Shown here: positions 30,811 to 63,189 of the stretch, piece by piece
Position numbering within the stretch: the first letter of the stretch is position 1
Layout of the letters: each line of letters opens with the position of its first letter
Assembly (NCBI GenBank): GCA_036676495.1
Contig: JAKFCT010000001.1
Coordinates: 1-64,000, forward strand
Source: Candidatus Sericytochromatia bacterium
Lineage (GTDB): Bacteria; Cyanobacteriota; Sericytochromatia; S15B-MN24; UBA4093
Length of the DNA stretch: 64,000 nucleotides
Reading direction: 5' to 3'
Position numbers and translations under genes: made by a program
The notes under the pieces: generated by a model
The model's database searches: none
Told to the model about the DNA's origin: nothing
What the model saw: only the letters and a program-made list of their open reading frames with translations

Positions 30811-31743
30811 TTACTTGAGGGGGATTCCGGCGGCCTGCGCCGCGTTCTTCAGTTGTTCCAACCCGTCGGCGGGCCGCAGGATCGTGATCGCTTCCGCGGT
30901 CTTGCGCGGATCGATGCCGCCGTAGACGATGCCCTCGATCAGCTTGCTGGACTCCTTGGGGCCGATGTTCTCCTTGACGATCCGGTTGACCGTGAGGTGA
31001 GGAAGATCGAAGTAGGTGACGCGCGACTCCTTGAACGCCTCGCGAGCATTCAGGCGCTTGGCGAAGAAGTTGTGGTTGCCGTCCGAGAAGAGGACCCGGC
31101 CCGCCAGTTCGGCCTCCTTGTACTGGACCGTGAGGTTTCCGTACTTGGCGATGTCCTGGGCGTACTTCTTGTTGCCGCCCACCGTGACATAGAGCGGATT
31201 GTGCTCGCGTAGTCCCAGGCGGATATCCGCCAGGTTGCGGCCCGCGACGTAGGAGACGCCCTTGCTGTCGATCTGGGTTTTCAAGGGCAGATCGTAGAGC
31301 GAGCGAATCTTCCCTTCGTTGAGCGCGTTGCTGAAGGAGAGGTTGGTGTAATTGGCCGCGATGACCTGCTGCTTCTTGAAATGCGTGATGAGGGCGTCGT
31401 ACTTCGCCTCGGCCTTGACGCGACTGCCGAATTTCTCGGTAAGGATGCCGAGGGTCTCTTCCTTGTAGCGCGCGGCGTTGGCCTTGCTCTGCTTCCAGGC
31501 GGCGGCGACCTCGGGGTGGAGCTCGATGCGCGTGGCCTTCACGGGGCGGAACTCGGTCTTGACGAGCTTGAGCTTCTTGCCTTCGATGAGCTGGCGGGCA
31601 GACTCGGAGACGAAGAGGGAGTCCTTGGCGACCTTGCCCGCGATTTCGCGCGTTGCCGTCTTGGCCGCATCGTCGCTCACCGAGCTGAACGACTGGCGCA
31701 TCCAGGTCCGAAGGCCTTCCATCCCCTGACGCACGACGCTCAT
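30811..31743 (-). CDS. Hypothetical effector-like protein; C-terminal half resembles DUF3626/ADP-ribosyltransferase fold
   Basis: RBS AGGAGGT; P-x-Y, YG, R-x-x-F and IEGIVYGGI motifs; low-complexity N-terminus. Confidence 0.6.
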   Translation of the reverse strand: MSVVRQGMEGLRTWMRQSFSSVSDDAAKTATREIAGKVAKDSLFVSESARQLIEGKKLKLVKTEFRPVKATRIELHPEVAAAWKQSKANAARYKEETLGILTEKFGSRVKAEAKYDALITHFKKQQVIAANYTNLSFSNALNEGKIRSLYDLPLKTQIDSKGVSYVAGRNLADIRLGLREHNPLYVTVGGNKKYAQDIAKYGNLTVQYKEAELAGRVLFSDGNHNFFAKRLNAREAFKESRVTYFDLPHLTVNRIVKENIGPKESSKLIEGIVYGGIDPRKTAEAITILRPADGLEQLKNAAQAAGIPLK

Positions 31744-31782
31744 CGTCACCTCCTGCAAACAGCTTCTTAACGATCTCTGTAC

Positions 31783-31809
31783 CTATCGACCGAGGAGGGG
31801 AGAACTTTC
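31783..31809 (-). promoter_or_regulatory. Sigma28 (FliA)-like promoter
   Basis: GAAA-N15-GTCGATAG versus consensus TAAA-N15-GCCGATAA. Confidence 0.6.
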
Positions 31810-32121
31810 TTGTCGACGCTCTAAGAATGCTTTAAGGCTCCGAGCCGAAGGACGGACAGTGAGCGACGGAGCGGGTTGACCCTGGAACGAAACCCGATCA
31901 ATAGCTTAAAGATGCGCTAAGTAGTTTTCTCTGTTATCCTCTACACAGGCAACGGCGCCATCCTCCGGTGGGACTCAGAGGGCTCGAGAGGTTCAGGACC
32001 TCCGGGCTTGCGCTTTGCCGAACTTCATCAAAGCGTGTTACGATCCACCGGCAGGCTGGTATCGTCGCAAGGTACGTAAAACGGGGCCTTCAGGCCTCAT
32101 GTCGTCAAAGGAGCTTTCCCC

Positions 32122-33141
32122 ATGGTGGATAAGCAGACCGCCCTGGATTGGTACCGCCAGATGGTGCTGATCCGGCGCTTCGAGGAGAAGTGCGCCGAGG
32201 GATACGCCTACGCGAAGATTGGCGGCTTCCTTCACCTCTACATCGGTCAGGAAGCCGTCGCGGTGGGTGCGATCAACGCGCTCAACGACGATGATGACAT
32301 CGTCACCCACTACCGCGATCACGGGCATGCGATCGCCCGGGGCCTCGACAGCAACGGCCTGATGGCCGAGCTTTACGGCAAGGAAACCGGATGCAGCAAG
32401 GGCCGCGGCGGCTCGATGCACCTCGCCGATGCCTCCAAGCACATGTGGGGAGGCTACGCCCTGGTTGGCGCCCACCTGCCCCTGGCCGTGGGCATGGCCA
32501 TGCGGCACCAGTACACCGGTAGCAAGCAGGTCGCCATCGCCTTCTTCGGCGACGGCAGCACCAACAACGGTGGCTTCCACGAGTCGCTCAACATGGCGGC
32601 CGTCTACAAGCTCCCCGTGATCTTCATGATCGAGAACAACCTCTACTCGATGGGCGTGGCCATCCACCGCGACTCGGCAATCGAGGATCTCCACAAGCGC
32701 TCCGTCGCTTACGGCATCCACGGCGAGGCCGTCGACGGCATGGATCCCCTGGCGATGTACGAGGCCACCCAGCGGGCGGCCGAGCGCTGCCGCAACGGCG
32801 AAGGCCCGGTGCTGCTGGAGGCCAAGACCTACCGCTTCCGCGGGCACTCCATGGCCGACCCCGAGTACTACCGCAACAAGGAAGAAGTCGAGTTCTGGCG
32901 CCAGCGCGACCCGATCGCCAACTGGAAGAAGAAGCTTCTCGACGACGGCATCGCCACCGAGGACGAGCTCAAGGCCCTCGACGAGTCCGTGGAGCGGGAA
33001 ATGGACGAGGCGGTGCGCTTCGCGGACGAGAGCCCCGATCCGGCGCTGTCCACGCTCTGCGATTACCTGTACGCGACCCCCGTGGAGAACGGCGACCTCT
33101 GCCGTCAACAGCAGGCTGACAAGCCTGACTACGCCCAATAG
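32122..33141 (+). CDS. pdhA: Pyruvate dehydrogenase E1 alpha
   Basis: GFLHLYIGQEA, GRGGSMH, GDG...ENN, YRFRGHSMADP. Confidence 0.96.
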   Translation: MVDKQTALDWYRQMVLIRRFEEKCAEGYAYAKIGGFLHLYIGQEAVAVGAINALNDDDDIVTHYRDHGHAIARGLDSNGLMAELYGKETGCSKGRGGSMHLADASKHMWGGYALVGAHLPLAVGMAMRHQYTGSKQVAIAFFGDGSTNNGGFHESLNMAAVYKLPVIFMIENNLYSMGVAIHRDSAIEDLHKRSVAYGIHGEAVDGMDPLAMYEATQRAAERCRNGEGPVLLEAKTYRFRGHSMADPEYYRNKEEVEFWRQRDPIANWKKKLLDDGIATEDELKALDESVEREMDEAVRFADESPDPALSTLCDYLYATPVENGDLCRQQQADKPDYAQ

Positions 33142-33153
33142 GAGAGCCTCGCC

Positions 33154-34125
33154 ATGCCCGTCATTACTTACCGTGAAGCCCTGCGCCAGGCCCTGCGCGA
33201 GGAAATGCTCCGCGACGACTCCGTCTTCATCCTGGGCGAGGACATCGCCTACTACGGCGGATCTTACGGCGTGACCAAGGGATTCGTCGAAGAGTTCGGC
33301 GAGAAGCGGATCAAGGACACCCCGATCTCGGAGACCGCGATCATCGGTGCCGCCACCGGCGCCGCCATGACCGGCCTGCGCCCGATCGCCGAGATCATGA
33401 GCTTCAACTTCATCCTCCAGGCGATGGATCAGATCGTCAACCACTCGGCGAAGATCCACTACATGTTCGGCGGCCAGATGCAGGTGCCCATGGTCATCCG
33501 CACCCCGGCCGGCTGGAGCCAGCTGTCTGCGACCCACTCCCAGACGCTCGAGCCCCTGTTCGCCTACATCCCCGGCCTCAAGGTCGTCATGCCCAGCACC
33601 CCCTATGATGCGAAGGGCCTCCTGAAGGCCGCCATCCGGGACAACGACCCGGTGCTCTTCATCGAGCACGCGCTGATCTACGCCACCAAGGGCGAGGTCC
33701 CCGAAGAGGAGTACGTCATTCCCATCGGCAAGTCGGTCGTGCGCCGGCCCGGCAAGGACGTCACCATCGTCTCCTTCTCGCGCATGGCGCTGGAATCGGT
33801 GGCGGCGGCCGAGGAGCTGGCCAAAGAAGGCATCGACTGCGAGATCATCGACCTTCGCTCCCTGCGTCCGCTGGACATGGGTCCGGTGCTCGAGTCGCTG
33901 AAGAAGACCAACCGGGTGGTCGTGGCCGAAGAGGGCTGGAAGTCCCACGGCATCGGCGCCGAGGTCTCCGCGCGCATCATGGAAGAGGGCTTCGACTTCC
34001 TCGACGCTCCGGTCAAGCGCGTGGCGGGCATCGAGATTCCCGATCCCTACAACAAGCACCTCGAGTACCAGGCTTTCCCCCACAAGGCGGACGTCATCAA
34101 GGCCGTGCGGGAAGTTCTCAAGTAG
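33154..34125 (+). CDS. pdhB: Pyruvate dehydrogenase E1 beta
   Basis: DTPISE, ATHSQ, DLRSLRPLD, FDFLDAP. Confidence 0.96.
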   Translation: MPVITYREALRQALREEMLRDDSVFILGEDIAYYGGSYGVTKGFVEEFGEKRIKDTPISETAIIGAATGAAMTGLRPIAEIMSFNFILQAMDQIVNHSAKIHYMFGGQMQVPMVIRTPAGWSQLSATHSQTLEPLFAYIPGLKVVMPSTPYDAKGLLKAAIRDNDPVLFIEHALIYATKGEVPEEEYVIPIGKSVVRRPGKDVTIVSFSRMALESVAAAEELAKEGIDCEIIDLRSLRPLDMGPVLESLKKTNRVVVAEEGWKSHGIGAEVSARIMEEGFDFLDAPVKRVAGIEIPDPYNKHLEYQAFPHKADVIKAVREVLK

Positions 34126-34151
34126 CCCAAGTCAACATAAAGAGGTAAATC

Positions 34152-35489
34152 ATGGCCACGAACGTGCTCATGCCCAAGATGGGCTACGACATGACCGAGG
34201 GGAAGATTCTCCGCTGGCTCAAGCAGGAAGGCGATGCCGTCAACAAGGGCGAGCCGATCGCCGAAATCCAGACCGACAAGGTGAACATCGAAATCGAAGC
34301 GTTCGCCGGGGGCGTGCTCGCCAAGATCCTTCACGGGGCTGACGAGGACGTGGCGGTCGGCGAGGTCATCGGCATCATCGCCGCGCCGGGCGAGAAGGTG
34401 GAAGCTCCCAGCAAGGCCCCCAGCGCGGGGCAGGCGCTCGCCAACAACGGCTCGGGCCTCGACATGGCCCAGTCCGGCGAAGGCGGCGAGGCCGTCGGCC
34501 TTGGAGTCGGCGCCGGAACGGGCGCCAAGGCCAACGCGACCGTCGCCCCCTCGGCGGCGATCGAAGAGCCCAGCCGGGTCAAGCAGGCCAACGCCGACGC
34601 CCAGCGGGCAGCCGAGGGAGCTCATGCTCCGGCTCGCCGCGAGGGCGAGCGCGTGAAGGCTTCGCCCCTGGCCAAGAAGATGGCCGCCGCTCAGGGCGTC
34701 GAACTGGCAGAAGTGCCGGGGACGGGCCCTGGAGGCCGGATCGTCAAGCGGGACGTCGAGGGCTACAAGCCGGTCCAGAAGCCCGCGGCGTTCGTGCCCC
34801 AGGCCGCGGTCACCGAGGTGCCCCTCACCCGGATGCGTCAGGCGATCGCCCGCAGGCTCTCCGAGAGCAAGCAGACCGCCCCGCACTTCTACGTCACCAA
34901 GGCCATCGACATGACGGAGGCCGTCGCCTTCCGCGCCCAGGTCAACCAGACCTTGACCGGCGCCCAGAAGGTCTCCTTCAACGACATGGTCATCAAGGCC
35001 GTCGCCAAGGCCCTCAAGGCGTTCCCCAACGTCAACGCCTCCTGGGCCGAGGACCGGATCGTCCAGCATGAGGTCATCAACGTCGGCATGGCCGTCGCGC
35101 TGCCCGAAGGCCTGGTCGTTCCCGTCATCACCGATGCCTACGGCAAGACCCTGTCGCAGATCGCCGAGTCCGCCAAGGACCTGGCGGCTCGCGCCAAGGA
35201 GAACCGCCTGCGTCCCGACGAGTTCTCGGGCGGCACCTGCACCATCAGCAACCTCGGCATGTTCGACGTCGAGTCCTTCACCGCCATCATCAACCCGCCG
35301 GAGTCGGCGATCCTGGCGGTCGGCTCCATCGTCAAGGAGCCCGTGGTCATCAACGACGAAGTGGTCGTGCGCTCGATGATGCGCATCACCATCTCCAGCG
35401 ATCACCGGGTGATCGACGGGGCGCTCGCGGCTCAGTTCCTCGGTGAGGTCAAGCGCCTCCTCGAGACTCCGCTGCTCTTGGTGGTGTAG
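34152..35489 (+). CDS. pdhC: Dihydrolipoamide acetyltransferase E2
   Basis: Lipoyl motif TDKV, E3-binding ASPLA...GTGPGGRI, catalytic DHRVIDG. Confidence 0.95.
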   Translation: MATNVLMPKMGYDMTEGKILRWLKQEGDAVNKGEPIAEIQTDKVNIEIEAFAGGVLAKILHGADEDVAVGEVIGIIAAPGEKVEAPSKAPSAGQALANNGSGLDMAQSGEGGEAVGLGVGAGTGAKANATVAPSAAIEEPSRVKQANADAQRAAEGAHAPARREGERVKASPLAKKMAAAQGVELAEVPGTGPGGRIVKRDVEGYKPVQKPAAFVPQAAVTEVPLTRMRQAIARRLSESKQTAPHFYVTKAIDMTEAVAFRAQVNQTLTGAQKVSFNDMVIKAVAKALKAFPNVNASWAEDRIVQHEVINVGMAVALPEGLVVPVITDAYGKTLSQIAESAKDLAARAKENRLRPDEFSGGTCTISNLGMFDVESFTAIINPPESAILAVGSIVKEPVVINDEVVVRSMMRITISSDHRVIDGALAAQFLGEVKRLLETPLLLVV

Positions 35490-35491
35490 TC

Positions 35492-36889: not shown

Positions 36890-37009
36890 CCCTCAGGAGC
36901 TGCCGGGAGGCGGCCTTGGCCGCCGTCGGTCAACCGATCCACATGTAGCCCTCAGAAGCTACCGGGAGGCAGCGCTAGCTGCCGTCGGTCAACCGATCCC
37001 CATGTAGCC
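36847..37009 (+). repeat. 59-bp tandem repeat (about 2.8 copies) made of the lpdA 3' end plus 16 nt downstream
   Basis: Copies start at 36847, 36906 and 36965; each contains gtcggtcaaccgatcc..atgtagcc. Confidence 0.95.
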
Positions 37010-37034
37010 GCGGCTCACCGGAGCGCGATTCCGC

Positions 37035-37067
37035 GAGAAGGTCCCCCCGTTTCGGGGGGACCTTCTC
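37035..37067. terminator. Bidirectional terminator hairpin
   Basis: gagaaggtccccccg-ttt-cggggggaccttctc, a 15-bp perfect stem. Confidence 0.8.
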
Positions 37068-37520
37068 TCAGCTCCAGGGCAACTGCGCGGGCTGTGATTC
37101 ACCTGGCGTCGATTGGCGACGCTCCCGCTGCTCTCTCAGCAGCGCCAGTTCGGTCTCGATGGCGTCGAGCCTCGCCGCGAACTCGTCCTGCCGGCGGTTC
37201 GCCCGCACGGCCAGGATGGTCGAGACCGTCGTCAGCCCGACCACCACTGCGGCGGGAATCACCGGAATGGCCGGAAAGAAGGGAATCACCGATTCGAGCT
37301 TCCGGCTCTTCTTCCATTCCCGGCTCGCGGTTTTCCGCAAGGGCTTGGCGGTATGCCGGGCCTCACGAACGCCGCGCGACCAGCTCGTACGCAGCCAGTG
37401 CTGCGCCCGATCCATGCCCCGGGTAATCAGCTGGTCTCCGACCATGGAGACCAGCAACGCAGGAACGGCGGTAGTCAAACGATCCGTCGGGCTGCGCCGA
37501 CGGTTCAAGATCGTGGCCAT
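37068..37520 (-). CDS. Hypothetical membrane protein with C-terminal coiled coil
   Basis: RBS AAAGGAGGT; one hydrophobic segment. Confidence 0.65.
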   Translation of the reverse strand: MATILNRRRSPTDRLTTAVPALLVSMVGDQLITRGMDRAQHWLRTSWSRGVREARHTAKPLRKTASREWKKSRKLESVIPFFPAIPVIPAAVVVGLTTVSTILAVRANRRQDEFAARLDAIETELALLREQRERRQSTPGESQPAQLPWS

Positions 37521-37533
37521 CGGCCACCTCCTT

Positions 37534-43399: not shown

Positions 43400-43474
43400 G
43401 TAAGCTTCGGTTAAGCTTCCTGGAAAAACGCAAGGCGGGACGCGAAGACTCCGATACCGTTAATGGGTCGTTAA
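43400..43474 (+). promoter_or_regulatory. Sigma28-like promoter flanked by two TTAA-N7-TTAA-type boxes
   Basis: GTAA-N7-TTAA at 43400-43414; CAAG-N15-TCCGATAC at 43431-43457; TTAA-N7-TTAA at 43460-43474. Confidence 0.6.
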
Positions 43475-43494: not shown

Positions 43495-44286
43495 ATGGCC
43501 ATCTCGAACGCAACTTATGCCTCGGCCGGCCAGGTGCAGCGCCTCCGCTCCAACCGCCCGCTCGACACGGTCTCTCGGGCGATGGGCATCCACGTCCCCA
43601 CGAGCCTTTCGCCCGCGAAGCTGGCGAAGGACGTCAAGACCGACGTGGTCGCCTCGATTCCTTTCGACGCCCTCTTCACCAGCCAGGAATACCGCCGTGG
43701 CGAGCTCACGGCGAAGGAGTACGTGGCCAAGACCCTCAGCACCTCGGTCAGCTCGGTCGCCTGGACCGTCGGCGGCGCGATGATGGGTGCGCTCTTGGCA
43801 CCGGCCGGACTTCCCGCCCTCATGGTCGGCATCGCCGGGTTCGCCACCGGGCTGGTCGCCACCACGATCTGGGATAGGACGGTCGGCAAGCAAGTCACCG
43901 AAGCCATTGAGACGGTCATTCCGGAAGCTCTGGCCGAGCCGGTGGCCGAGGTCTTCACCAAGGCGATCGCCAACCCCCTTTACGACGCCGTCTGGAAGCC
44001 GCTCACCGAAGTCGTGACCCCCGCCTTCCGCTGGGCCATGCAGAACAAGGTCACGGCAGGAGCCGCTTTGGGCGGTCTGGCACTGCTCTTCCCCAATGCC
44101 GCCAAGGCGATCGCCCCCGAGGTCCTGACGATGGCCGGCGGCATGGCGGCGGGAATCGCGTTCACCGGCAAGGTGATCGACCCCATCCTGCCTCCCGTCG
44201 AGGAGCAGGCCGAAGCGCCCGCGAAGGCCGCCAAGGCCAGCGGCGCCGGCCAGGCCGCAGGCATCCACTTCGCCCGCATCCGCTAA
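43495..44286 (+). CDS. Hypothetical protein with Gly/Ala-rich hydrophobic hairpins, no Sec signal
   Basis: RBS AGGAGGT; hydrophobic segments AWTVGGAMMGALLAPAGLPALMVGIAGFATG and AGAALGGLALLF. Confidence 0.7.
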   Translation: MAISNATYASAGQVQRLRSNRPLDTVSRAMGIHVPTSLSPAKLAKDVKTDVVASIPFDALFTSQEYRRGELTAKEYVAKTLSTSVSSVAWTVGGAMMGALLAPAGLPALMVGIAGFATGLVATTIWDRTVGKQVTEAIETVIPEALAEPVAEVFTKAIANPLYDAVWKPLTEVVTPAFRWAMQNKVTAGAALGGLALLFPNAAKAIAPEVLTMAGGMAAGIAFTGKVIDPILPPVEEQAEAPAKAAKASGAGQAAGIHFARIR

Positions 44287-45042: not shown

Positions 45043-46449
45043 TTACTCCAGGGCGCGGATGAAGTCGATCAGGGAGTCGAAGCGGTCGGGCGGGATATTG
45101 GGATAGGGCGGCATCGCCACGCCGGGTTTGATGGCCTGAGGGTTGCGGATCCAGCGCCTCAAGTAGTCCTCGTCCCTTCGGGCGGAGATGCCTGCGAGGT
45201 CCGGGCCGAGCTGGCCGCCGGCTCCCTTGATGGCATGGCAGCTGACGCAGCCTTGTTCCTGGTAGACCGTCCAGCCTGCCTGCTGGGACGGGGTCAGGTT
45301 CTCGTAGCCCTTCGGCACGGAGGTCATGGCTGTCGGATCCAGGCCTGCCGTGTTGGGTGCATTGGCGCCCTGCACGTTCAGCCAGACGAGGATGGCGAGG
45401 AAGACGGTGGCCGGGATGACCGTGTAGGGGCGGGACAAGGGATGGCGCCGGGGGTTGTGATCGACGAAGGGTAGGATCAACAGCAAGACCCCGATGAGCA
45501 GCGGAATGCCTACCACCCCGACAAGTTCCCAGCTCCCCGGAAAGTACCAGAGGGCCTGGAAGAGCCAGAAGAAGTACCATTCGGGCCGCGGCACGAAGCC
45601 GGTGCTGACCGGATCCGCCGGGTCCCCGAGCTTGGCCGGAAAGAGGATGGCCATCACGACCAGCACGACCACCACGACCAGGCTGACGATGGCATCCTCC
45701 ATGACGTTATGGTAGAAGGGCTGGCCCTTCTTCTTGAGGTCCTCGTAGTACTCGAGGTAGGCGCGCTGGGGATCGGGCGCCGTCGCATAGGGCTCCTCGC
45801 GGCCGGGCGGGTTGGAGATCCCTTGCCGGACCACCAGGGCGATGTGAAACGCGATCAACGCGAAGGTCGCCAGCGGCAGCAAGATCACGTGAAACGCGTA
45901 CCAGCGCGTCAGCGTGTACGATCCGACGTCGCGCCCGCCCAGGATCAGCTCGCGGACCTGCTCGCCGATGACCGGCACGACCGCCGACATCTGGCCGAAG
46001 AGGACGGTGGTCCAGTAGGCGGTTTGATCCCAGGGCAGGAGGTAGCCCGTGAAGGCGAACGCCAGGACCAAGAGCAAGAGGAAGGCGCCGGAAAGCCACG
46101 TGAGCTCCCGGGGGAACTTGTAGGCCCCCCAGTAGAAGGTCCGTAGCATGTGCAGCACGACCAGGATCACCATGGCAGAGGCGGCCCAGTGGTGGAGGTT
46201 GCGCACGAAGCCGCCGAGGAAGACCTGGTTCTGGATGTAGGCGACGGACTCGTAGGCCACCTGGGGCGAGGGCTGGTAGTAGATCATCAGCAGCATGCCG
46301 GTGACGACCATGAGGATGAAGGTCACGGTCGTGGCGCTGCCGAGCGTGTAGGCCCAGTTCACGCCGGGCGGGATGTGCCGGTCGAGGAAGTTATGCGCCA
46401 TCGTCCGGATGTTGGCCCGGGAGTCGAGCCAATCGATCAGGTTGCGCAT
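45043..46449 (-). CDS. Cytochrome b (N+C domains) fused to a monoheme cytochrome c
   Basis: Heme-b His in RNLHHW/LHMLR and FHV/FHI, GYLLPWDQ, PEWY, CVSCH, AMP. Confidence 0.92.
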   Translation of the reverse strand: MRNLIDWLDSRANIRTMAHNFLDRHIPPGVNWAYTLGSATTVTFILMVVTGMLLMIYYQPSPQVAYESVAYIQNQVFLGGFVRNLHHWAASAMVILVVLHMLRTFYWGAYKFPRELTWLSGAFLLLLVLAFAFTGYLLPWDQTAYWTTVLFGQMSAVVPVIGEQVRELILGGRDVGSYTLTRWYAFHVILLPLATFALIAFHIALVVRQGISNPPGREEPYATAPDPQRAYLEYYEDLKKKGQPFYHNVMEDAIVSLVVVVVLVVMAILFPAKLGDPADPVSTGFVPRPEWYFFWLFQALWYFPGSWELVGVVGIPLLIGVLLLILPFVDHNPRRHPLSRPYTVIPATVFLAILVWLNVQGANAPNTAGLDPTAMTSVPKGYENLTPSQQAGWTVYQEQGCVSCHAIKGAGGQLGPDLAGISARRDEDYLRRWIRNPQAIKPGVAMPPYPNIPPDRFDSLIDFIRALE

Positions 46450-46451
46450 GG

Positions 46452-46991
46452 CTAGGCCCCCCGGCCTTGCGCGTCATCTTCCCGATGGCTGGTCGGGCCT
46501 TTCCCGGGAGCATGGCCGCCCGGTGACTGGCCGATGTAAAGCGTGCCGTTCTCGATCCGCACGGCGTACGTATCGAGACCATGCGGGGGAGGCCCCCCGA
46601 CCACCGTGCCCTCCTTGGTGAAGGCGCCGCCATGGCATGGGCAGAGAAAGAGCTCCGCATTGGCGTTCCAGTCGTAGGGGCAGGCCAGGTGGGTGCAGTT
46701 CGAATCGTAGACGGAGAATCGGCCGTCTCCCCAGTTCACGACCCAGGCGCCCTGGCGATAGGGAGGCTCTCCACGGACCGGAATCTCGAAGCCCTCCAGG
46801 GTCGGCTTCCCCACCGGGTAGCGACTCACCGGGCCCAGCGCGATCCACGGCGGGGTCTGGGGACGCCGGATGAGCGGGGAAAAGAGATACCCGATGATCG
46901 GAAGGCCCAGCAGCATGGCGATGAAGGCACCGATCGCCCCGATGATCCGGTAGATGAAGCTGCGGCGCGAAACAGCGTCCGAATTCGCCAC
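46452..46991 (-). CDS. Rieske Fe-S protein (QcrA/PetC-like)
   Basis: Tat motif SRRSF, TM, CTHLAC, CPCHGG. Confidence 0.93.
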   Translation of the reverse strand: MANSDAVSRRSFIYRIIGAIGAFIAMLLGLPIIGYLFSPLIRRPQTPPWIALGPVSRYPVGKPTLEGFEIPVRGEPPYRQGAWVVNWGDGRFSVYDSNCTHLACPYDWNANAELFLCPCHGGAFTKEGTVVGGPPPHGLDTYAVRIENGTLYIGQSPGGHAPGKGPTSHREDDAQGRGA

Positions 46992-48029: not shown

Positions 48030-49145
48030 CTAGAGGCCGAAGATCGCCTCGAAGGGATCGACCGCTCCGTGGCCGTAGGTGTCGTCCCGACCGCGATCGC
48101 CCAGGTCATCGGCGGTCTTGTAGAGGCGCTCGCGGATCTGGGCGGGCGTCCAGTCGGGATTCTTGGCGACCAGCAGCGCGGCGACGCCGGCGACGTAGGG
48201 AGCCGCCATCGAGGTGCCGGTGTAGTTGGCGAAGGAATCGTCGGGAACCGAGGAGCGAATCGCGGTTCCGGGAGCCGAGAGGTCGACGGCGGGGCCGCGG
48301 CTGGAGCTGGGATGGGTCTTGAGCGGGCGGGAATGGTCGTCCAGGTTGGCCACGGAGATGACGTTCGGCGAGTTGCCGGGGTAGCCGACGGTATCGGCCT
48401 TGTCCGTGCCGTTGTTGCCCGCGGCCACCACCACGACGACCCCCTTGGACTCGGCGTAGCGAATGGCTTCCTCGACCTGCTTGACCTTGCGGCCGTGAAC
48501 GAACTTCATCAGCCAGCCGTCCATCTGGATCCCGAGGCTGATGTTGATGACCTTGGCGCCATGGTCGGCCGCGTAGCGGATGCCGTCGGCGAGCTGCGGC
48601 ATGAACTTGGTGTTGGAGGTGGAGAGGTTGGGAATCTTGATCGGCAGAATCGACGCGCCCTGGGCCACCCCTTCGAGCCCCTCGGAGGGGAAGGACCCGG
48701 CGATGATGCCGGCGACATGGGTGCCGTGCCCCATGGTGTCCTCGACGTCCCGGCCCTTGGTCTCGACGTTGTAGCCGGGAAGCAAGCGGCCCTTGAGGGC
48801 GGGGTGATCGGTGTCGACCCCCGAGTCGATGACCGCGACCACCACCTGGCCCTGCGGGATCTCGCCGAAGCCGTCGTCGGTGAAGAGCACGGAGGCCTCC
48901 GCGCCGTCAAGGGAGAGGCGATCGCCCCGGCTCACGCTGGCGTCGGCGCCAAGACGGGCGACGCGGCTCTCGGTGCGGGCCGCGCCGCTCAAGAGCAGCA
49001 CGTCCTGGCCCTGGCGGGCGATCACGCTGGGAAGGCCGTCCTTGGCCGCTTCGGCCTGCAGCAGAGCCCGATTGGCCGCCGTGTCGCGAAGACGCTTGGC
49101 CGTGGCGAGGGTCTGGAGCTGGGACGAGCGGGTCTGAACAGCCAT
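48030..49145 (-). CDS. S8 subtilisin-family serine peptidase without Sec signal peptide
   Basis: IDSG, HGTHVAG, AAGN, GTSMAAP; RBS AGGAGG. Confidence 0.92.
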   Translation of the reverse strand: MAVQTRSSQLQTLATAKRLRDTAANRALLQAEAAKDGLPSVIARQGQDVLLLSGAARTESRVARLGADASVSRGDRLSLDGAEASVLFTDDGFGEIPQGQVVVAVIDSGVDTDHPALKGRLLPGYNVETKGRDVEDTMGHGTHVAGIIAGSFPSEGLEGVAQGASILPIKIPNLSTSNTKFMPQLADGIRYAADHGAKVINISLGIQMDGWLMKFVHGRKVKQVEEAIRYAESKGVVVVVAAGNNGTDKADTVGYPGNSPNVISVANLDDHSRPLKTHPSSSRGPAVDLSAPGTAIRSSVPDDSFANYTGTSMAAPYVAGVAALLVAKNPDWTPAQIRERLYKTADDLGDRGRDDTYGHGAVDPFEAIFGL

Positions 49146-49192: not shown

Positions 49193-49240
49193 TTAACGTT
49201 ATCGCCCCTTTGATTTAAATCTTTCTTAGAATTTTCTTAA
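49193..49240 (-). promoter_or_regulatory. Sigma28-like promoter overlapped by 11-bp-phased TTAA repeats
   Basis: GAAA-N15-GGCGATAA (49225-49199); TTAA 49193, TTAA 49215, TTAG 49226, TTAA 49237. Confidence 0.65.
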
Positions 49241-55343: not shown

Positions 55344-55464
55344 GGCGGAGCGTCACTCCCGCAAGGACGATGGGGGATCCCGGCAAGACGACCCTTGACC
55401 AAGCGCCCGGAACGCGCGTAAACTTTCTTAACACTCCTGACATGGAGGGGAGAGGGGATGCGTC

Positions 55465-56094: not shown

Positions 56095-56095
56095 C

Positions 56096-57121: not shown

Positions 57122-57176
57122 CCGACCCTCCCTCGTTTCCGTGTCAGGAAAAGCATAAGGGATAATCGAATTTTAA

Positions 57177-58604
57177 TCAATCCTTTACCAAGCCACCGGT
57201 CGCCTCCCCGAATTCAGGGGCGAGGGACGGCGAGGACGCAGCAGATAAGGGCGAGGGTTGACCAGAGAAGGGCGAGGGTTGACCGGAGAAGAGCGACGAG
57301 AGGCGGAAGTCCACGAACTGCTGGGGGTCGTCGACCTGTTCGCGTCCCATGGAGACCCAGAGGCGATCGCCCTGGAGCTGGGAGACCATGGCCGTGACGG
57401 ACGTGAGACGCCCCCAGTCTCCCAATACCACGGGGCCCAGGGCCATGCGGACCGGGACGGAGCGCGAGATCGACTGGGCCGTGGGGCCGCGCGTCCCGGA
57501 AACCGGATCGATGAGGTCCGCGAGCACGGCCTTCGCGCGTTCGGGATCGAGCTGGCCGTACTGGGCGGCCAGAAGCTTTCCGAAGCGCTCGTCCCGTGCG
57601 CCCGGCTTCGCCTGCGAGAGGCCTTGGGCTTTGAAGGTCCCCATGCTCTGGGCGAGATCCGCGAGCGAACCGCCCGAGCCATAGGATCTCGCGGCGACCT
57701 GGCCGCCGGAGGCCTCGACGTAGCGGGCGCCTTCGCCTTGGGCCAGGGTCGCGACGAAGGCCTGGCTGGTCGCGCCGGCGGCACGGCGCAGCTCGGCCTC
57801 GGCGGCATCCGGGCCTTCGGCGTTCATCACGCGCAGCGTGAGCCAGCGCGGGGGCAGGCCCGCCGTCTTCGAAGCACCTGCCACCGGGTCGATGGCGGCG
57901 AAGAGGCCGTTCTCGCTCCATGCGGCCTCGGCGGCCAAAGAGCCGACCCGGGTCAAGGCGACCCAAGCGGGGCCCGATTCCGGGTGATGCACCCAGAGCA
58001 TGGTGAAGCGCTGGCGCGTCCCGAAGGTGAGATCATCCGAGATGCGGCCGAGGAGGGGCCTTCCGTCGAGGCTGGCCTTCCCGCGGGCGATGAAGCCGCC
58101 GCCGCCCGGCAGCAGGGCGGGCAGGTTCTTGGAGAGCGCGGCGTAAGGGGGATCGGTGGAAAGCAGCAGGATATCCGCCATGGCGAGCCCGGAGCCCGTG
58201 GCGAGGCCTCTCAGGAAGTCCCGCTCGTCCTGGGTGAGGTGCCGATCCTGCTGGCGCGCGTAGAAGCGGTGGACGAAGCCCGGCGTCAGGACGAAGGCCG
58301 GAAAGGCGCGTCGCTCATGGTAATCGCGGACCTGATCGCGGATGCGCTCGCGCATGAGGGTGCCCTGCTGCATCCCGGCCTGGAAAAGCGTTCCACGGGT
58401 CTCCATGATCAGGACTCCCCGGTCCCGGATGACCCGCCCCTGGGTATCGACGCTCTTGGCGATGACCTGGCGCTCGGGCATCGCGGGGCCATTGGGGACG
58501 TTGGGAATGGCCTCTCCACAAGCGACCAGGAGAGACGCCCCCAGCAAAAGGGCAGGAAGAGCGAACTTGGGACGGACGATCTGGGGCAACGGTCTATGCT
58601 CCAC
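57177..58604 (-). CDS. C45/Ntn-hydrolase-like lipoprotein, nucleophile Cys apparently absent
   Basis: Lipobox LVAC, G.QQG..MRE.I, GLATGSGL, ASLDGRPLLGR, SENGL. Confidence 0.55.
   Translation of the reverse strand: MEHRPLPQIVRPKFALPALLLGASLLVACGEAIPNVPNGPAMPERQVIAKSVDTQGRVIRDRGVLIMETRGTLFQAGMQQGTLMRERIRDQVRDYHERRAFPAFVLTPGFVHRFYARQQDRHLTQDERDFLRGLATGSGLAMADILLLSTDPPYAALSKNLPALLPGGGGFIARGKASLDGRPLLGRISDDLTFGTRQRFTMLWVHHPESGPAWVALTRVGSLAAEAAWSENGLFAAIDPVAGASKTAGLPPRWLTLRVMNAEGPDAAEAELRRAAGATSQAFVATLAQGEGARYVEASGGQVAARSYGSGGSLADLAQSMGTFKAQGLSQAKPGARDERFGKLLAAQYGQLDPERAKAVLADLIDPVSGTRGPTAQSISRSVPVRMALGPVVLGDWGRLTSVTAMVSQLQGDRLWVSMGREQVDDPQQFVDFRLSSLFSGQPSPFSGQPSPLSAASSPSLAPEFGEATGGLVKD
57243..57291. 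repeat. 21-bp in-frame tandem duplication in the gene 3' end (FSGQPSP x2)
   Basis: aagggcgagggttgacc at 57247 and 57268. Confidence 0.85.
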
Positions 58605-58733
58605 GGAGGCGGCTTCCCGTCGGGGGCCTCCGGCTTGGGACGCTCGGAAGCACCCGAACGGCGGTTACCCGCTGATCATACACGATCGCGCCGCCTTCCC
58701 GCAGCCCCCGGAAGCAGTCCGTCACTCGGCGGG

Positions 58734-60569
58734 CTAAGGGTTATCCACCACGGTGGCCTCGGCGAGCCGCTCCATGCGGGTGGTCTTCACGGTCTCCGCT
58801 CCGTAGCGCCCGAGGTAGAGGTGGATATTCTCCCGGTTCCTCAGGTACATCCAGAGCCCGTATTCGTAGGCCTCGAGGCATTGCCGCGTGCATCGCTTCA
58901 AGGCGTCCCTGAGCTCGTTCTCGTCCATGCCGCTGATCGCCTTGTAGGTGAGCGTGGTCGAGAGCTCCTCGACGTCCTCGATCACCTCGAGGATGCCGTG
59001 CTTCTCGGCCTCATGGTAGAGCGGGCTCTGCTTGTTCAGCGAGAATACCGAGCGCCCGTAGGCATGAATGATATCCGTGTTCTGACAGATCGAGTCGATG
59101 GTCATCTGGGCCTCGTCCCGGGTTTCGGTCGGATACCCGAAGAAGAGGTAGTTGAAGTTGAAGATGCCCGCGTCGGAGGAGGCCCTCAGGATGTCGAAGC
59201 GCTGCTGGTAGCCGACTCCCTTGTTGATGAGCTCGAGGATCCGGGGGGATCCGGTCTCGTAGCCCCAGAGGACCATCCGGAGGCCCGCCGCGTAGAGCAG
59301 TTCGAAGAGGTCGGGTGTGAAGGCCTTCTCGATGCGCCCGTTGCAGAACCAGGTGATGTCGAGTTCCTCGTCGATGAACCGCTGGGCCAGCTTGCGCATG
59401 TAGGCGGGGCGCATCGACTCGTCGATGAACTGGAAGTTCCGGATGCCGTAGCGGTCCTTCAGGTAGCGGATCTCCGCAACCAGCCGGTCGAGGCTCTTGA
59501 CGTCGTTCTCGACCCCGTAGAAGGAGTCGCAGAAGGTGCACTGCCCCCAGTAACAGCCCTTGCTGGCTCGGATCGTGAGGATCAGCTCGGGAGAGAGGTA
59601 CTTGTCGAGTGGGAAGCCCTCGAGGTCCTGGAAGCCGATCACGTCCATCGCGAGGGGCTTGCGGGCAGAAGTCATCCGCACGGCGTCGCCGTCCAGGTAA
59701 AGCAGACTGGGGACGTGCTCGAGGCTCTCGCCGCGTTCGAGGGCTTGCACCAGGGAAAGCAGTTGATCCTCTCCTTCACCGAAGCAGAGGCTGTGCGCGA
59801 AGGCCTTGAAGAACTCGGGACGCTGGGAGAGGGCCTCGGTGACGCGCGTGAAGAAGTTGCCGCCGATGCCGATATGCATGCCCGCGGGGGCCGCCTGGCG
59901 CAGCATGTAGGCGAGCGTCAGGCCCGGCACCACCTGGGAGAAGCAGTTGATGGAGATGCCCACGTAATCCGCATCCGAGGCCAGCAGTTCCGGCAGGACC
60001 TCCTCGTAGTACGGGATGAACATGTTGCTCTTGCGGTCCTGGGCCTGAGCGATGAGGCTATTGGTGTTCATCATGAGGCCCGGCTGCTCGAAGTAGTTGA
60101 AGCTGAGCTGCGAGGGGAAGTAAGGAGTCGAGGCCGCCTTGAGGGCCAGGTCGATGACGTGGAGGGCCTCCAGCAGCATGTCCGGGTTGTAGAAGCGCCG
60201 CGGGTCCTTGAGGGTCTCCTTGGCGTCCATGATCAGGTGGGGCAGGTGATCGAGCATTTCCCCGTGCTCGTCCACGAAGCGGCGGATCGCCCGGAGCCGG
60301 ACCCGGTCGAGCTGGGCGTCGAGCGAATTCGGTTCGAGCATGAGCTTGAAGCTGCTCTGCGGGCCCAGGTACTCGAGGTCGAGGTGCAGGCGGTCCCGGA
60401 CGCGCTGGAGGTGCTGCGGGCTCAGCACATGATCGTAGTACTCGATGTTGAGGTCACGGACGTCGACCTCGACGCCGTGGTGGCGGAGGTGACCCGCCAG
60501 CGCCCGCAGCGCGAAGTGGGGGTGCTGCGGGCTCCACTGGGGGGGAAAGATCAGGAGCGCCTTCGCCAT
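58734..60569 (-). CDS. B12-binding-domain radical SAM protein (class B methyltransferase-like)
   Basis: N-terminal IFPPQW..P, VGISI...SQ, IGIGGN, GEGE, CYWGQCTFC, FIDE, GYETG, FFGYPTET. Confidence 0.9.
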   Translation of the reverse strand: MAKALLIFPPQWSPQHPHFALRALAGHLRHHGVEVDVRDLNIEYYDHVLSPQHLQRVRDRLHLDLEYLGPQSSFKLMLEPNSLDAQLDRVRLRAIRRFVDEHGEMLDHLPHLIMDAKETLKDPRRFYNPDMLLEALHVIDLALKAASTPYFPSQLSFNYFEQPGLMMNTNSLIAQAQDRKSNMFIPYYEEVLPELLASDADYVGISINCFSQVVPGLTLAYMLRQAAPAGMHIGIGGNFFTRVTEALSQRPEFFKAFAHSLCFGEGEDQLLSLVQALERGESLEHVPSLLYLDGDAVRMTSARKPLAMDVIGFQDLEGFPLDKYLSPELILTIRASKGCYWGQCTFCDSFYGVENDVKSLDRLVAEIRYLKDRYGIRNFQFIDESMRPAYMRKLAQRFIDEELDITWFCNGRIEKAFTPDLFELLYAAGLRMVLWGYETGSPRILELINKGVGYQQRFDILRASSDAGIFNFNYLFFGYPTETRDEAQMTIDSICQNTDIIHAYGRSVFSLNKQSPLYHEAEKHGILEVIEDVEELSTTLTYKAISGMDENELRDALKRCTRQCLEAYEYGLWMYLRNRENIHLYLGRYGAETVKTTRMERLAEATVVDNP

Positions 60570-60847
60570 CAGGCCTCTCCCAGGATGGCCTTGGCGGCCC
60601 GCGTGAACTCATGCAGCTCTTTGATCAGGGGCAGCATGACCTGCATGCGGTTGTGCTCGATCTCGGCGATCGCCTCGTCGTGCCGTTGCTTCTTGGCAGC
60701 GATGTCCTCGCTGCGTCCGGTCATCTTGAGCTCGAGGAGCATCTCCTTGAGGGCGCGCTCGCGTGTGATGAGCTGGTCGAGTCGCTGGACGCGCTCCACG
60801 ACCTCGGCCTTGCTGAGTAACGGGGCAGCGTGATGTTGCATGGCCAT
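60569..60847 (-). CDS. Small charged helical/coiled-coil protein
   Basis: TGATG coupling to the rSAM gene; 6 bp from the upstream stop. Confidence 0.75.
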   Translation of the reverse strand: MAMQHHAAPLLSKAEVVERVQRLDQLITRERALKEMLLELKMTGRSEDIAAKKQRHDEAIAEIEHNRMQVMLPLIKELHEFTRAAKAILGEA

Positions 60848-60853
60848 CCTCGG

Positions 60854-61888
60854 CTAGACGGTGGGAGTCTTGGTGGACGGGGTCGACGCGCTTCCGGAGG
60901 CCGGAGTGGTGGGAGTGCTGGCCGCCGGGGCATCTCCGGTGGGCGCCGTGCCGGGAGTCGAGCCTTGTCCCGAGGGGGGCCCCGCGGTCACCGTCCGTGC
61001 CGCGGCCGCTTCGATCCCGCGTGACGCCTCGATGTCGGCCTTACGGCGCTGCTCCATCTTCTCGACGGTATCGAGCGCGTCCTTGGCCACCTGGGCGGCC
61101 AGTGCCAGACCGTCGTTTCGATTTCCCCCGCCCTGGATGCTGGCCGGATCGATGCCCAGGTCCGTGAGCGCCTGCTCGAAGCCCATGTCATGCGTGGTGA
61201 GCATGCCGTCGCCGTTGGAGTCCATGGCGATGACGTTCCCGGTCTCCCGGTTGACGACGGCCAGCATGCCCCCTTCGCGCTTGACCTCGGCGTCGATCCC
61301 GTACTCTTCCTTGAGGATCTTGGCCAGCTCCTCGAATCCCACCATGCCTTCCTTTTGCTTGAGCACGGAATAGACCGCGATCAGCTCGTCCTCGGTCATG
61401 GTGAGGGTCTTGCTGGCCGGAGCCCCCATGCCGCTGCCGCCGACGGAGACGCTGGCCATCCGGATCGGGGGAGGGGCGGCTTCCATGGCGGGCGCGCTAG
61501 GAGGCGGCTCGATCGAGGCCGGCACCGGCGGAGGGGAGGCGAGCGTGATCTCCTCTCCCGGAGGCGAGGAGGGGATCTCGATCTCGGTCTGCGGGGTCAG
61601 GACCGTCTCGGCCCACTGGGCCGTATTCTCGGTGGCCTGCGGGGGAAGCTCGAGATCGGTCTTGGGGGTCCAGACGAGTTCCGCCCACTGCGAGGTGGTG
61701 CCATTCAAGCCGAGTTCCGAGGTGGTACCAGCAGCGCCGAGTGCGACCGCGTCTCCGCCGGGAGCGGCGGTCGATTGCACGGATCCGGGCTCGACTGGCC
61801 CCGCCGGCGCTTCCGGCGCGGGGCCGGCAGCGCCCGGAGTGACCAGGGGGCGTGGGTTCAACGGGTTGTTCGAAAGCGGGCTCGTCAT
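60854..61888 (-). CDS. Pro/Ala/Thr-rich protein with a 24-aa repeat and an EF-hand-like loop
   Basis: RBS AAGGAGG; QWAE.V.TP.T..E.P x2; DSNGDGMLTTHD. Confidence 0.75.
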   Translation of the reverse strand: MTSPLSNNPLNPRPLVTPGAAGPAPEAPAGPVEPGSVQSTAAPGGDAVALGAAGTTSELGLNGTTSQWAELVWTPKTDLELPPQATENTAQWAETVLTPQTEIEIPSSPPGEEITLASPPPVPASIEPPPSAPAMEAAPPPIRMASVSVGGSGMGAPASKTLTMTEDELIAVYSVLKQKEGMVGFEELAKILKEEYGIDAEVKREGGMLAVVNRETGNVIAMDSNGDGMLTTHDMGFEQALTDLGIDPASIQGGGNRNDGLALAAQVAKDALDTVEKMEQRRKADIEASRGIEAAAARTVTAGPPSGQGSTPGTAPTGDAPAASTPTTPASGSASTPSTKTPTV

Positions 61889-61925
61889 CGTTGCCTCCTT
61901 GATTGGGGGAGCGGCATGGCCTCCG

Positions 61926-62735
61926 CTAGAACCGGAGATCCTTGATCAGGCGGTTCTCTCGGTCGAACCAGCGCTCGCGCGTCACGTTGCCGATCGCGTC
62001 ATGGTCGAATTCCTTGCGGAGGCTCACCTTGCCGGCCTCGTTTAGCGCTTCGATCTTGGTGACGCGGTCCTTGGGGCCGTAGGTGTAGGAGTAGCCCCCG
62101 CGCGGAGTTCCGTCCGGCGAGTGCCAGCGACGCGATAGGACGTTGCCCTTGGCGTCATGCCGGTAGGTGTGAAAGCCTTCAAGCTGGTTTCGCGGCCCGT
62201 AGAGGTGCTGGCTCACCACCTCGCCGCGATCGTCGTAAGCGTAGGCGAAGCGCCGGATCATGCGGTGCTGCTCGTCGTACCAGGTTTCGTCCGCGACCTG
62301 GGCACGGTAGTTGTAATCCGACTTGATGGTGTAGAAGAGGGAGCCGTCCTGGCGATACTCCGCGCGCCATGCCATCAAGCCTGTCCACTCGTCGAAGACG
62401 TAGCGGTGGTAGTTGTCGAAGCGGCCGTAGCGATCGACCCAGATGGAATCGACGAGCCCTTCTCCCTCGTAGCGGTAGTAGCGCTTGCTGGGCTTCGAGA
62501 ACTCCCGGGTGTGCTTCTCGAAGTAGATCACCCGGCCCTCGGGATCATAGTGAAACGCCTGGTGATCCGTGGGCACCTGGCCGGCAGGGAATTCACCGTA
62601 GCCGATCACGCGACCGAACTCATCAATCCGGCCAATCGTGAAGTACCGGACGGAGACGATGCGCGCCCGGATCTCGGCATCGAGATCCGCGAGGCTCGGC
62701 AGCCGAACCGCCCTGTCCTGGATAGCTCCCCCCAT
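61926..62735 (-). CDS. YD/RHS-like beta-hairpin repeat protein
   Basis: Repeated Y-x-Y-D-x-x-G units (YAYDDRGE, YRHDAKGN, FDHDAIGN); RBS GAAGGAGG; no signal peptide. Confidence 0.75.
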   Translation of the reverse strand: MGGAIQDRAVRLPSLADLDAEIRARIVSVRYFTIGRIDEFGRVIGYGEFPAGQVPTDHQAFHYDPEGRVIYFEKHTREFSKPSKRYYRYEGEGLVDSIWVDRYGRFDNYHRYVFDEWTGLMAWRAEYRQDGSLFYTIKSDYNYRAQVADETWYDEQHRMIRRFAYAYDDRGEVVSQHLYGPRNQLEGFHTYRHDAKGNVLSRRWHSPDGTPRGGYSYTYGPKDRVTKIEALNEAGKVSLRKEFDHDAIGNVTRERWFDRENRLIKDLRF

Positions 62736-63189
62736 GTGCCCTCCTTCGACTGACCACCAAACCCGTGACCTTCGCACGATCACGCGATCTACCGAGGTCT
62801 TACCCGCACTCCGGCGGGGTGCTACTAAGTAGTTTGCACGGATTTACATCACATCCATGCCGCCTCCCCGTCGAGCTTCTTCCCGTCTCCTTGCTGGACT
62901 GACGCGGCCGGAGGGGCCTCAGTCGCGCCCTATTCCGCGCGAACTCCCCCCATGCAACCGAGGGCGCCGAAGAAATCCCGCAGGCAGAGGGTATAGTAGA
63001 CGTGGCGCTCGATCGGTTTCGATCGCGCATGCGTTTTGCAGATTTAACAGAATCCAAAAATAGGTTTGACACTTCGATAAGCAACTGAAAGCCAAAATCG
63101 AACGATATGTCCTTCAGCGAGATGCAAGCTCACTCAAGGGCTTACGAAAGGTACTAGCGGCTCACGGGCCGGAAGAAAGGGGACCTCAG

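Follow-up and report, generated by a model that had tools for sequence, protein, structure and literature searches.

A putative sigma28-like promoter class with phased TTAA boxes ahead of hydrolase and lipoprotein genes in a Sericytochromatia genome

Genes and promoter-like sites in the window

The present study deals with a group of promoter-like sites, and with the genes behind them, in a window of 64,000 nucleotides (nt), which comprises positions 1 to 64,000 of the first contig (C1) of a metagenome-assembled genome of Candidatus Sericytochromatia (G000; 4.14 Mb in 106 contigs, G+C content about 66%). Sericytochromatia are uncultured relatives of the cyanobacteria that are mainly known from genomes, and the present host is flagellated and probably non-photosynthetic. 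An earlier note on this DNA had pointed to four sigma28-like promoters, each preceding a gene (here A to D) whose product lacks a signal peptide, and had proposed a dispersed set of toxins and hydrolases that is expressed together with, and exported by, the flagellar apparatus. Our analysis, in which all results are computational, suggests that site 1 and site 3 are part of one large alternative-sigma regulon for a hydrolytic attack or antagonism programme, with site 2 as a probable further member, a reading that we regard as likely. Genes were called with a simple codon-usage script of our own, which yielded 3733 genes at 86% coding density. For comparison we used 47 genomes of the class (G000 to G046), ten of which (G000 to G009) represent the family; G001 and G002 belong to the same genus as G000, G005 and G008 to another one, and G006 to a third.

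Gene A (positions 30811-31743, minus strand) encodes a protein of 310 amino acids (aa) that is composed of a conserved leader of about 55 aa, including the peptide KDSLFVSESAR, and a C-terminal domain of about 240 aa, and for which five other homologues were found among 5.8 billion proteins. In long forms of 582 aa (G003) and 589 aa (G008), the same leader and C-terminal domain flank an extra middle domain of about 270 aa, and the KDSLFVSESAR-type motif is kept in both of these as well as in four of the five short-form homologues. The middle domain of the long forms, encoded at positions 451-2220 of locus L047 (plus strand, G008) and 1495-3243 of locus L048 (minus strand, G003), carries the signature HDGKVENFLV...IDLGQ, which by eye recalls a kinase catalytic loop; neither long form matched a Pfam family. 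For the C-terminal part of gene A, two Atlas leads were obtained, namely DUF3626 (0.92) and OspC (0.89), with no Pfam match at E<=10 and no PDB sequence at E<=1 to confirm them, and the AlphaFold2 model built from seven sequences, with a predicted local distance difference test (pLDDT) value of 45.7, was too poor for a fold search.

Gene B (43495-44286, plus strand) encodes 263 aa starting with MAISNATY and containing glycine-zipper-like hydrophobic segments. It is weakly similar (E 2.5e-4) to the protein C57_51679, a member of a paralogous glycine-rich (glycine-zipper) family in which several genes have strong promoters of the class described below and some members carry LysM or amidase parts. 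Gene C (48030-49145, minus strand) encodes an S8 subtilase of 371 aa (PF00082, 5e-62) in which the D/H/S triad motifs VIDSGVD, HGTHVAG and GTSMAAP are readable. In the AlphaFold2 model (mean pLDDT 76), the catalytic domain resembles subtilisin (1c9j; Z 27.6, root-mean-square deviation 2.6 over 239 residues) and is preceded by a folded N-terminal domain of about 95 aa that harbours the peptide QDVLLLSGAAR. Gene D (63190-64000 on the plus strand of the window, ending at C1:64347) encodes 385 aa with an EF-hand-like N-terminus and KPxGE[FY]KTPVA repeats. No Pfam family was found for the products of genes A, B and D, and, in line with the absence of Sec or Tat signals claimed earlier, none of the four proteins has an N-terminal hydrophobic signal according to our own hydrophobicity rule.

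The four promoter strings quoted in the earlier note are all present in the DNA. Site 1 (31783-31809, minus strand), GAAA-N15-GTCGATAG, can be read as CAAGAA-N18-CGATAG, is located about 40 nt before gene A and has a TTAA box at -47 (TTAA positions are counted relative to the C of CGATA throughout). Site 2 (about 43430-43457, plus strand), CAAG-N15-TCCGATAC, is an exact match to GCAAG-N17-CGATA(C) 36-43 nt before gene B. Site 3 (49199-49225, minus strand), GAAA-N15-GGCGATAA, reads TAAGAA-N18-CGATAA and lies 54 nt before the subtilase gene C; a second TTAAGAA box precedes this promoter, and TTAA is found at -36, -14 and +8. Site 4 (63054-63080, plus strand), CCAA-N15-TTCGATAA, lies before gene D.

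A promoter class with fixed spacing and phased boxes

As had been suggested, a position weight matrix (PWM) derived from the genome's own flagellar promoters was scanned across all genome positions. The matrix was trained on five promoters of late or rod genes (flgG, flgM, fliC, flaG and flgB), and the fliK promoter, which was outside the training set, scored 18.1. Sites 1 and 3 reached 15.9 bits (rank 12) and 14.6 bits (rank about 20), respectively, which places both among the top 20 or so positions of the genome, whereas the values for site 2 (2.1-5.6) and site 4 (9.4-11.5) are within noise. At 14 bits or more, the PWM found 16 sense and one antisense match in intergenic DNA (binomial p 0.002), compared with 3.7 matches over both strands in shuffled intergenic DNA.

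Because the top non-flagellar matches had G or C in place of the flagellar T of TAAA, we ran an unsupervised, orientation-blind mixture model with two components on the columns -28 to +8 of all 669 intergenic CGATA sites. The bare core is common, with 424 gene-directed and 245 antisense copies; the model assigned 64.1 of the former and 6.4 of the latter to the motif class. Site 1 and site 3 obtained posteriors of 0.997 and 0.90, whereas those of site 2 (about 0) and site 4 (0.001, rank 161 of 424) were negligible.

The class is characterised by the -10 element (G/C)CGATAAC and by a -35 region that is degenerate in sequence and fixed in distance, with the three variants TAAGAA-N18, GCAAG-N17 and TTTACC-N19. 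For TAAGAA-N18-CGATAA, seven exact matches were found in the whole genome compared with 0-1 at other spacings; the corresponding numbers are 7 and 0-1 for TTTACC-N19-CGATA, and 22 and 2-9 for GCAAG-N17-CGATA. The dinucleotide before ATA is mostly CG across the three variants (14/32, 9/12 and 7/11). Sites with a high posterior lie at a median distance of 55 nt from the start codon (35 of 49 within 30-90 nt), the remaining sites at 144.5 nt. The sigma28 -10 element GCCGATAA with its CGA core is found in the class and at sites 1, 2 and 3; a TAAA -35 element 15 nt upstream of the -10 octamer is not, although the frame is right and is occupied by the variants GAAAG, GCAAG and ACCGA. A housekeeping promoter as the identity of the class is ruled out by the canonical form of the tRNA promoters (TTGACA-N17-TAnAAT, i.e. 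TTGACA/TATAAT). In number, the class (about 64) is on a par with strict TTGACN-N17-TANNNT promoters, of which 63 occur in sense intergenic DNA.

The earlier note had also recorded TTAA-N7 boxes at three of its promoters, and these turned out to be a general feature of the class. In the 49 sites with a posterior of at least 0.9, TTAA starts are found at -47 (11 sites), -36 (12), -25/-26 (7), -58/-59 (5) and -69 (4), and thus form a lattice with a period of 11 bp. At least one box on this lattice is present in 28 of these 49 sites, compared with seven of 346 low-posterior and eight of 245 antisense sites, and two or more are present in 11 of the 49 and in none of the low-posterior or antisense sites; when the lattice was shifted by 5 bp, none of the 49 sites fitted. 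Since the columns of the mixture model only cover -28 to +8, the boxes from -36 upstream represent independent evidence. Over half of the sites have such boxes, one to four of them, with a consensus of about aaGCTTAAcc. An arrangement of repeats along a single helix face, reaching into the -35 region, would be expected for tandem activator subunits or for UP-type contacts of the polymerase alpha subunit, and could be explained by either. TTAA pairs at +8/+19 extend the 11-bp lattice into the transcribed leader, for example at positions 43460-43474 of the window and at the C82:52883 site. At site 2 both of these boxes are on the lattice and a third one at -41 is off it; at site 4 the sole TTAA, at -31, is likewise off the lattice.

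The motif can also be followed into related genomes. The exact TAAGAA-N18-CGATAA pattern precedes the gene C homologues of G001, G002, G005, G006 and G008, with unrelated 18-nt spacers, and the second TTAAGAA box is kept in the same-genus homologues (G001, G002) as well; it is the gene C paralogues on contig C9 of G000 and contig C102 of G002 that do not keep TAAGAA-N18-CGATAA. Upstream of the gene A orthologue of G003 we found TAAGAA-N18-CGATAT with a different spacer (PWM 16.6), and nothing resembling site 1 upstream of that of G008.

One could argue that the four sites are chance look-alikes in intergenic DNA that is richer in A and T, given that 669 intergenic copies of CGATA exist and that site 4, as well as site 2 when judged by the PWM, is at background level. 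For sites 1 and 3 this is refuted by the asymmetry between sense and antisense matches, the strictness of the spacing, the narrow range of distances from the start codon, the TTAA lattice as independent evidence and the conservation in other genera, and as an account of all four sites we consider chance very improbable. Sites 1 and 3 are clearly predicted to be functional promoters of the class. Site 2 is probably a real one as well, a rating it owes to a single test: 14 copies of GCAAG-N17-CGATA lie in sense orientation in intergenic DNA 20-120 nt before a start codon, compared with 0, 0, 2, 1, 0, 2 and 1 for seven other spacings. Site 4 was rejected, since its PWM value and posterior are at chance level and its TTAA is off the lattice, and here chance stands as the explanation. 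Gene D thus has no credible class site of its own by posterior, score or TTAA position (its promoter score is 7.2), although its paralogues C30_1020 and C5_310 carry strong ones (17.6 and 23.1). Three of the four sites originally noted, together with the TTAA boxes, are hence retained, two of them firmly and the third with the word probably attached.

Genes of the predicted regulon

A dispersed, putatively co-regulated set of hydrolases with sigma28-like promoters, as had been postulated, does exist and is far larger than the earlier note could see, with at least 60 promoters on 31 contigs. We searched 62 downstream proteins with Pfam, drawn from the four genes A to D, 20 genes of the first scan and 40 of the 47 genes of the mixture model, and at least 16 of these proteins are hydrolases. 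They include peptidases of the families S8 (two), C11 (two), C1, C39-like, M14 and C92, wall hydrolases (a LysM-amidase, a LysM-polysaccharide deacetylase and a protein with PG_binding and glucosaminidase domains), and furthermore GH1, PLD and GDPD proteins as well as one EF-hand protein whose fold is lipase-like. Products other than hydrolases comprise EF-hand proteins, NHL propellers, a Flp pilin, a prepilin peptidase, a TolC-like protein and two MFS transporters, along with glycine-zipper proteins and many proteins without a Pfam family. S8 subtilases are abundant throughout the family, with 13-18 matches per genome and 17 in G000.

With a promoter score of at least 16, 55 genes were retained, of which 19 encode lipoproteins, five encode proteins with another hydrophobic N-terminus and 31 encode proteins without a signal. 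Lipoprotein genes are enriched among them (19/280 versus 36/3453, p 6e-9). Most LysM proteins lack a signal (about 19 of 24 gene calls, as read from our table), and several of them begin directly with the LysM domain; a promoter score of at least 13 was reached, according to the same table, by five of the approximately 19 signal-less LysM proteins and by none of the four signal-bearing ones.

Relation to the flagellar promoters and choice of the sigma factor

The genes whose presence the earlier note had asked to be confirmed, namely fliA, flgM and flhA, are all found in the genome, and so is flagellin. FliA is encoded at C38:21607-22275 (TIGR02479, 268.3 bits with a cut-off of 189.6) within a fla/che-type operon that runs from flgB through fliA and cheW. 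FlgM (PF04316, 1.5e-11) is encoded on C23, together with flgN, flgK, flgL, fliW, csrA, flhF and flhG, while C29 carries flagellin, flaG, fliD, fliS and fliT. C45 carries a second cluster of flagellar genes, which encodes a sigma factor of its own (223 aa) along with flgA, flgH, flgI and a FliF that includes a FliG_M portion. The export gate is doubled in this genome (two copies each of FlhA, FliP and FlhB), and the flagellar systems are distributed over contigs C38, C45, C34 and C42.

Most of the 47 class genomes have two full-length FlhA genes, and the possession of two flagellar type III systems appears to be ancestral in the class. The six genomes of family f7 have at most one FlhA, of the second type (none was found in G043), and lack a true FliA. 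Since FlhA was detected in 45 of the 47 genomes, with the two genomes without a match each being 87% complete, a contrast with non-flagellated relatives is impossible. On C29 (C29:36649-37172; locus L022, 9649-10172, minus strand), the flagellin matches of two short open reading frames are confined to the N-terminal and the C-terminal domain, respectively, which looks like a broken second flagellin gene; a moderate flagellar-type promoter match is found upstream of it.

The classical consensus of class-3 flagellar promoters is TAAA-N15-GCCGATAA, and the present class shares with it the CGATAA core and the overall spacing, in a genome that encodes both FliA and FlgM. The late flagellar genes of G000 (flgG, flgM, flaG, fliC and fliK) have promoters of the form CTAAAG-N-CCGAT[AG], and the flagellin promoters of G000, G001, G004 and G009 read CTAAAG-N-CCGATG or TCGAATA. 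In the hydrolase class, in contrast, the T of TAAA is missing and TTAA boxes are present in addition, and none of the flagellar and chemoreceptor genes examined is driven by it. Because of these differences in the T at -21, in the TTAA boxes, and in the chemoreceptor and sigma-factor genes, the hydrolase class appears to be a sister of the flagellar promoter class and not identical to it. The case for the postulated co-expression with flagella is consequently weakened.

From our point of view, FliA is nevertheless slightly favoured as the factor that reads the -10 element of the class, because of the CGATAA core, the frame shared with Bdellovibrio and the distribution of the pattern across genomes. 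With regard to the latter, GCAAG-N17-CGATA compared with an N20 control was counted 155 versus 37 times in the ten family genomes, 12 versus 4 times in six class genomes that have the second flagellar system only and no true FliA, and 87 versus 105 times in fourteen cyanobacterial genomes, counts that are small, stem from genomes related to each other and are uncontrolled for base composition.

The latter limits are among several points that weigh against our reading. A T at -21 is present in all seven flagellar promoters of G000, compared with a frequency of 0.08 in the class; the two flagellar promoters tested for lattice boxes, flgG and flgM, have none; neither the class nor the flagellar promoter type was found before any of 17 chemoreceptor (methyl-accepting chemotaxis protein) genes; and the class motif is absent upstream of all ten sigma-family genes, so that an assignment of the sigma factor by autoregulation failed. 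Site 2, moreover, depends on one exact-pattern test and is missed by both PWM-type models. The genome itself is 92% complete with 6.7% contamination, and the terms intergenic, sense and signal peptide reflect our own gene calls and our own rule for hydrophobicity and lipobox. It is quite possible that the class is used by a different sigma factor or under a different condition.

In this context, one could imagine that a sigma factor other than FliA recognises the class in concert with a dedicated activator of the TTAA lattice, without any flagellar tie, and that the likeness to sigma28 is a family resemblance. Ten sigma-family genes are available, and candidates would be the 223-aa sigma factor on C45, a group-3 paralogue (encoded on C30, C88 or C102) or an extracytoplasmic function (ECF) sigma factor; layouts of the GAAAC-N16-CG type are also typical of ECF sigma factors. 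The differing -35 region (non-T at -21; GCAAG, TAAGAA, TTTACC), the absence of the lattice from flgG and flgM and the chemoreceptor genes outside the class would all be in line with this. On the other hand, the CGATAA core is a hallmark of FliA-type -10 elements and recurs in Bdellovibrio promoters that have been ascribed to FliA; few copies of the pattern exist in the six genomes whose sole flagellar system is the second one, with its sigma factor, which argues against a C45-type factor; and no candidate gene is autoregulated by the motif. Taken together, we regard another sigma factor as possible, albeit doubtful.

Our preferred reading is, hence, that the -10 element would be recognised by the FliA encoded on C38 or by a close paralogue, that the phased TTAA boxes would be bound by a helix-face activator or by the alpha subunit of RNA polymerase, and that both together might switch on a programme of hydrolytic attack or antagonism, in analogy to the FliA-driven attack phase of Bdellovibrio.

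Export of the proteins without signal peptide

If the signal-less products act outside the cytoplasm, the question arises how they would leave the cell. According to the full model of the earlier note, the signal-less members of the regulon, including the products of genes A to D, the LysM hydrolases and others, would be co-expressed with the flagellum and secreted by flagellar type III export. Several proteins that carry extracytoplasmic domains indeed lack Sec signals, namely the majority of the LysM proteins mentioned above, the protein with PG_binding and glucosaminidase domains and the subtilase, which has a pro-like domain and no pre-sequence. The presence of two complete flagellar export-gate sets in G000 would fit this model, and so would the failure to detect TssC, a contractile sheath or VirB4 in G000, although this genome is incomplete (92%) and other export systems may be missing from the assembly. 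Precedents are known from Campylobacter (PMC2764114) and Lysobacter (PMC7688988).

The N-termini point in the same direction, though in an unspecific manner. In 39 regulon proteins without a signal, the stretch from residue 2 to residue 25 has an excess of Q (1.67x), N (1.48x) and S (1.43x) and a deficit of E (0.54x) and L (0.68x); Ile occupies position 3 in eight of the 39 compared with a background of 5%; and five of 25 proteins with an MAI start have a promoter of the class (p 2e-5). A bias towards Q, N and S is, however, not specific for signals of type III secretion systems and typical of any disordered segment. In a phmmer search with six N-terminal segments, no leader common to different proteins was found, and only paralogues of gene C were retrieved.

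The FlgM-like motif to which the earlier note had attached importance fares less well. Both peptides are present in the proteins of genes A and C, but PF04316 (FlgM) matched neither gene A and its six relatives (E<=10) nor gene C (E<=0.01), and the genome's own FlgM, as read from the upstream sequence, has TDAAQFSLTS and not the proposed motif. In gene C, QDVLLLSGAAR forms a beta strand (residues 48-53) of the confidently folded N-terminal domain, in which residues 15-95 have pLDDT values of 70-96 per block. In the gene C homologues of G005 and G008 the position of the motif is not conserved, and a similar QDALKLS is found in an added low-complexity leader. The fold search with the gene C model was dominated by catalytic domains of subtilisins and barely probed the N-terminal domain, which, as judged from the model, is more in keeping with a pro-domain than with an export signal of the linear kind. 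The relaxed motif D-x-L-x-[LV]-S is found in 18 of 3733 proteins. The postulated enrichment of this motif behind promoters of the class was not significant once A and C were set aside, with one of 16 proteins having a promoter score of at least 14 compared with about 0.3 expected.

Since about one third of the regulon (19/55) consists of ordinary lipoproteins, membership in the regulon does not imply a flagellar export route. Along with the distinct promoter class, the lack of FlgM support and the possibility that the incomplete genome hides other export systems, this makes the full model of flagellar co-expression and export, as far as the sequences allow us to judge, unlikely. The flagellar type III system is, from this perspective, one speculative candidate among possible exit routes for the signal-less members. 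The most far-reaching version of our own reading, in which a Bdellovibrio-like attack programme is driven by a FliA-type sigma factor and a helix-face activator on the phased CTTAA boxes and in which the many signal-less products (LysM hydrolases, the pro-subtilase and glycine-zipper proteins) leave the cell via either of the flagellar type III systems conserved in the class, would combine all of these elements, and we consider it rather improbable as a whole. The supported part of the original interpretation is thus the large sigma28-like hydrolase regulon and the parallel to Bdellovibrio; co-expression with flagella and export through them remain speculative.

Comparison with known systems and significance

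The closest parallel that we can offer, by analogy, appears to be the FliA-type regulon of the attack phase of Bdellovibrio bacteriovorus, in which TTAAG-N16-CCGATA was reported for 92 of 140 promoters and ascribed to FliA (Karunker et al., 2013, PMC3627812). The frame (GCAAG-N16-(G/C)CGATA in the present genome) is matched, and so are the spread to genes other than flagellar ones, among them those for proteases, surface proteins and many products of unknown function, the size of dozens to more than 100 promoters and the presence of flagella. Bdellovibrio belongs, however, to an unrelated phylum, whereas the host here is from a sister lineage of the cyanobacteria and its promoters are known from sequence alone. 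The -35 region is also more degenerate here and has the 11-bp CTTAA lattice upstream, and the flagellar promoters, which are pooled with the others in the account of Bdellovibrio, form a separable subclass.

With respect to export, the Cia and FspA proteins of Campylobacter are non-flagellar proteins exported through the type III secretion system of the flagellum (PMC2764114), and a protease and a glucanase of Lysobacter enzymogenes take the same route (PMC7688988). The likeness lies in signal-less hydrolases next to flagellar export gates, and the organism studied here may be antagonistic as well; the difference is that secretion was assayed in export mutants in those species, whereas here we have the genes alone.

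UP elements of Bacillus sigmaD promoters provide one of two analogues for the TTAA boxes. The other one is the HLR1 motif of cyanobacterial RpaB, described as two octamer repeats 2 nt apart (10.1101/443713), which shares with the boxes the short AT-rich repeats along a single helix face, immediately upstream of the -35 region and overlapping it, and differs in that the repeats found here have a period of 11 bp and number up to four or five aaGCTTAAcc boxes.

Among the papers listed by a literature search on Sericytochromatia and flagella, none dealt with gene regulation in these bacteria, as judged by titles and abstracts. A promoter class that joins proteases, wall hydrolases and lipases provides a concrete and testable hypothesis of an antagonistic or predatory lifestyle, and a promoter type shared by dozens of hydrolase and lipoprotein genes suggests a coordinated attack programme. 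The CTTAA lattice in combination with CGATAAC further represents a sequence rule by which the regulon can be predicted in related genomes. The unusually many signal-less LysM and hydrolase proteins, in turn, point to an unrecognised export route, for which the conserved dual flagellar systems are an obvious candidate; if this were true, a lineage that is sister to the cyanobacteria would use one flagellar system as its general secretion machine.

Further features of the window and the genome

A further promoter of the class type is located at 22614-22640 (plus strand), outside the range of the earlier note, with the -10 element CAGATAAC and TTAA boxes at -37 and -26; it scored 14.4 with the flagellar PWM and 17.7 in a further scoring. 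It is located upstream of a lipoprotein-like gene at 22674-23864 (plus strand) that encodes a hydrophobic N-terminal stretch followed by GCG and has a faint DUF3604 match. Elsewhere in the genome, at C33:27364-27483, a high PWM match (TAAAGTCAAC...GTCGAAAC) immediately precedes a gene for tRNA-Ser, with whose sigma70-type promoter it overlaps; as a promoter of the next gene downstream it is probably a false positive.

Several genes on the minus strand follow one another at positions 57177-62783 of the window. They encode a protein of 285 aa that faintly matches RHS repeats (61926-62783), two proteins without a Pfam family (60854-61888 and 57177-58604) and a B12-binding/radical-SAM protein identified by Pfam (58734-60569). 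Finally, positions 45043-46991 (minus strand) encode a Rieske protein together with a cytochrome b to which a cytochrome c domain is fused at the C-terminus; these constitute a respiratory bc-type complex.

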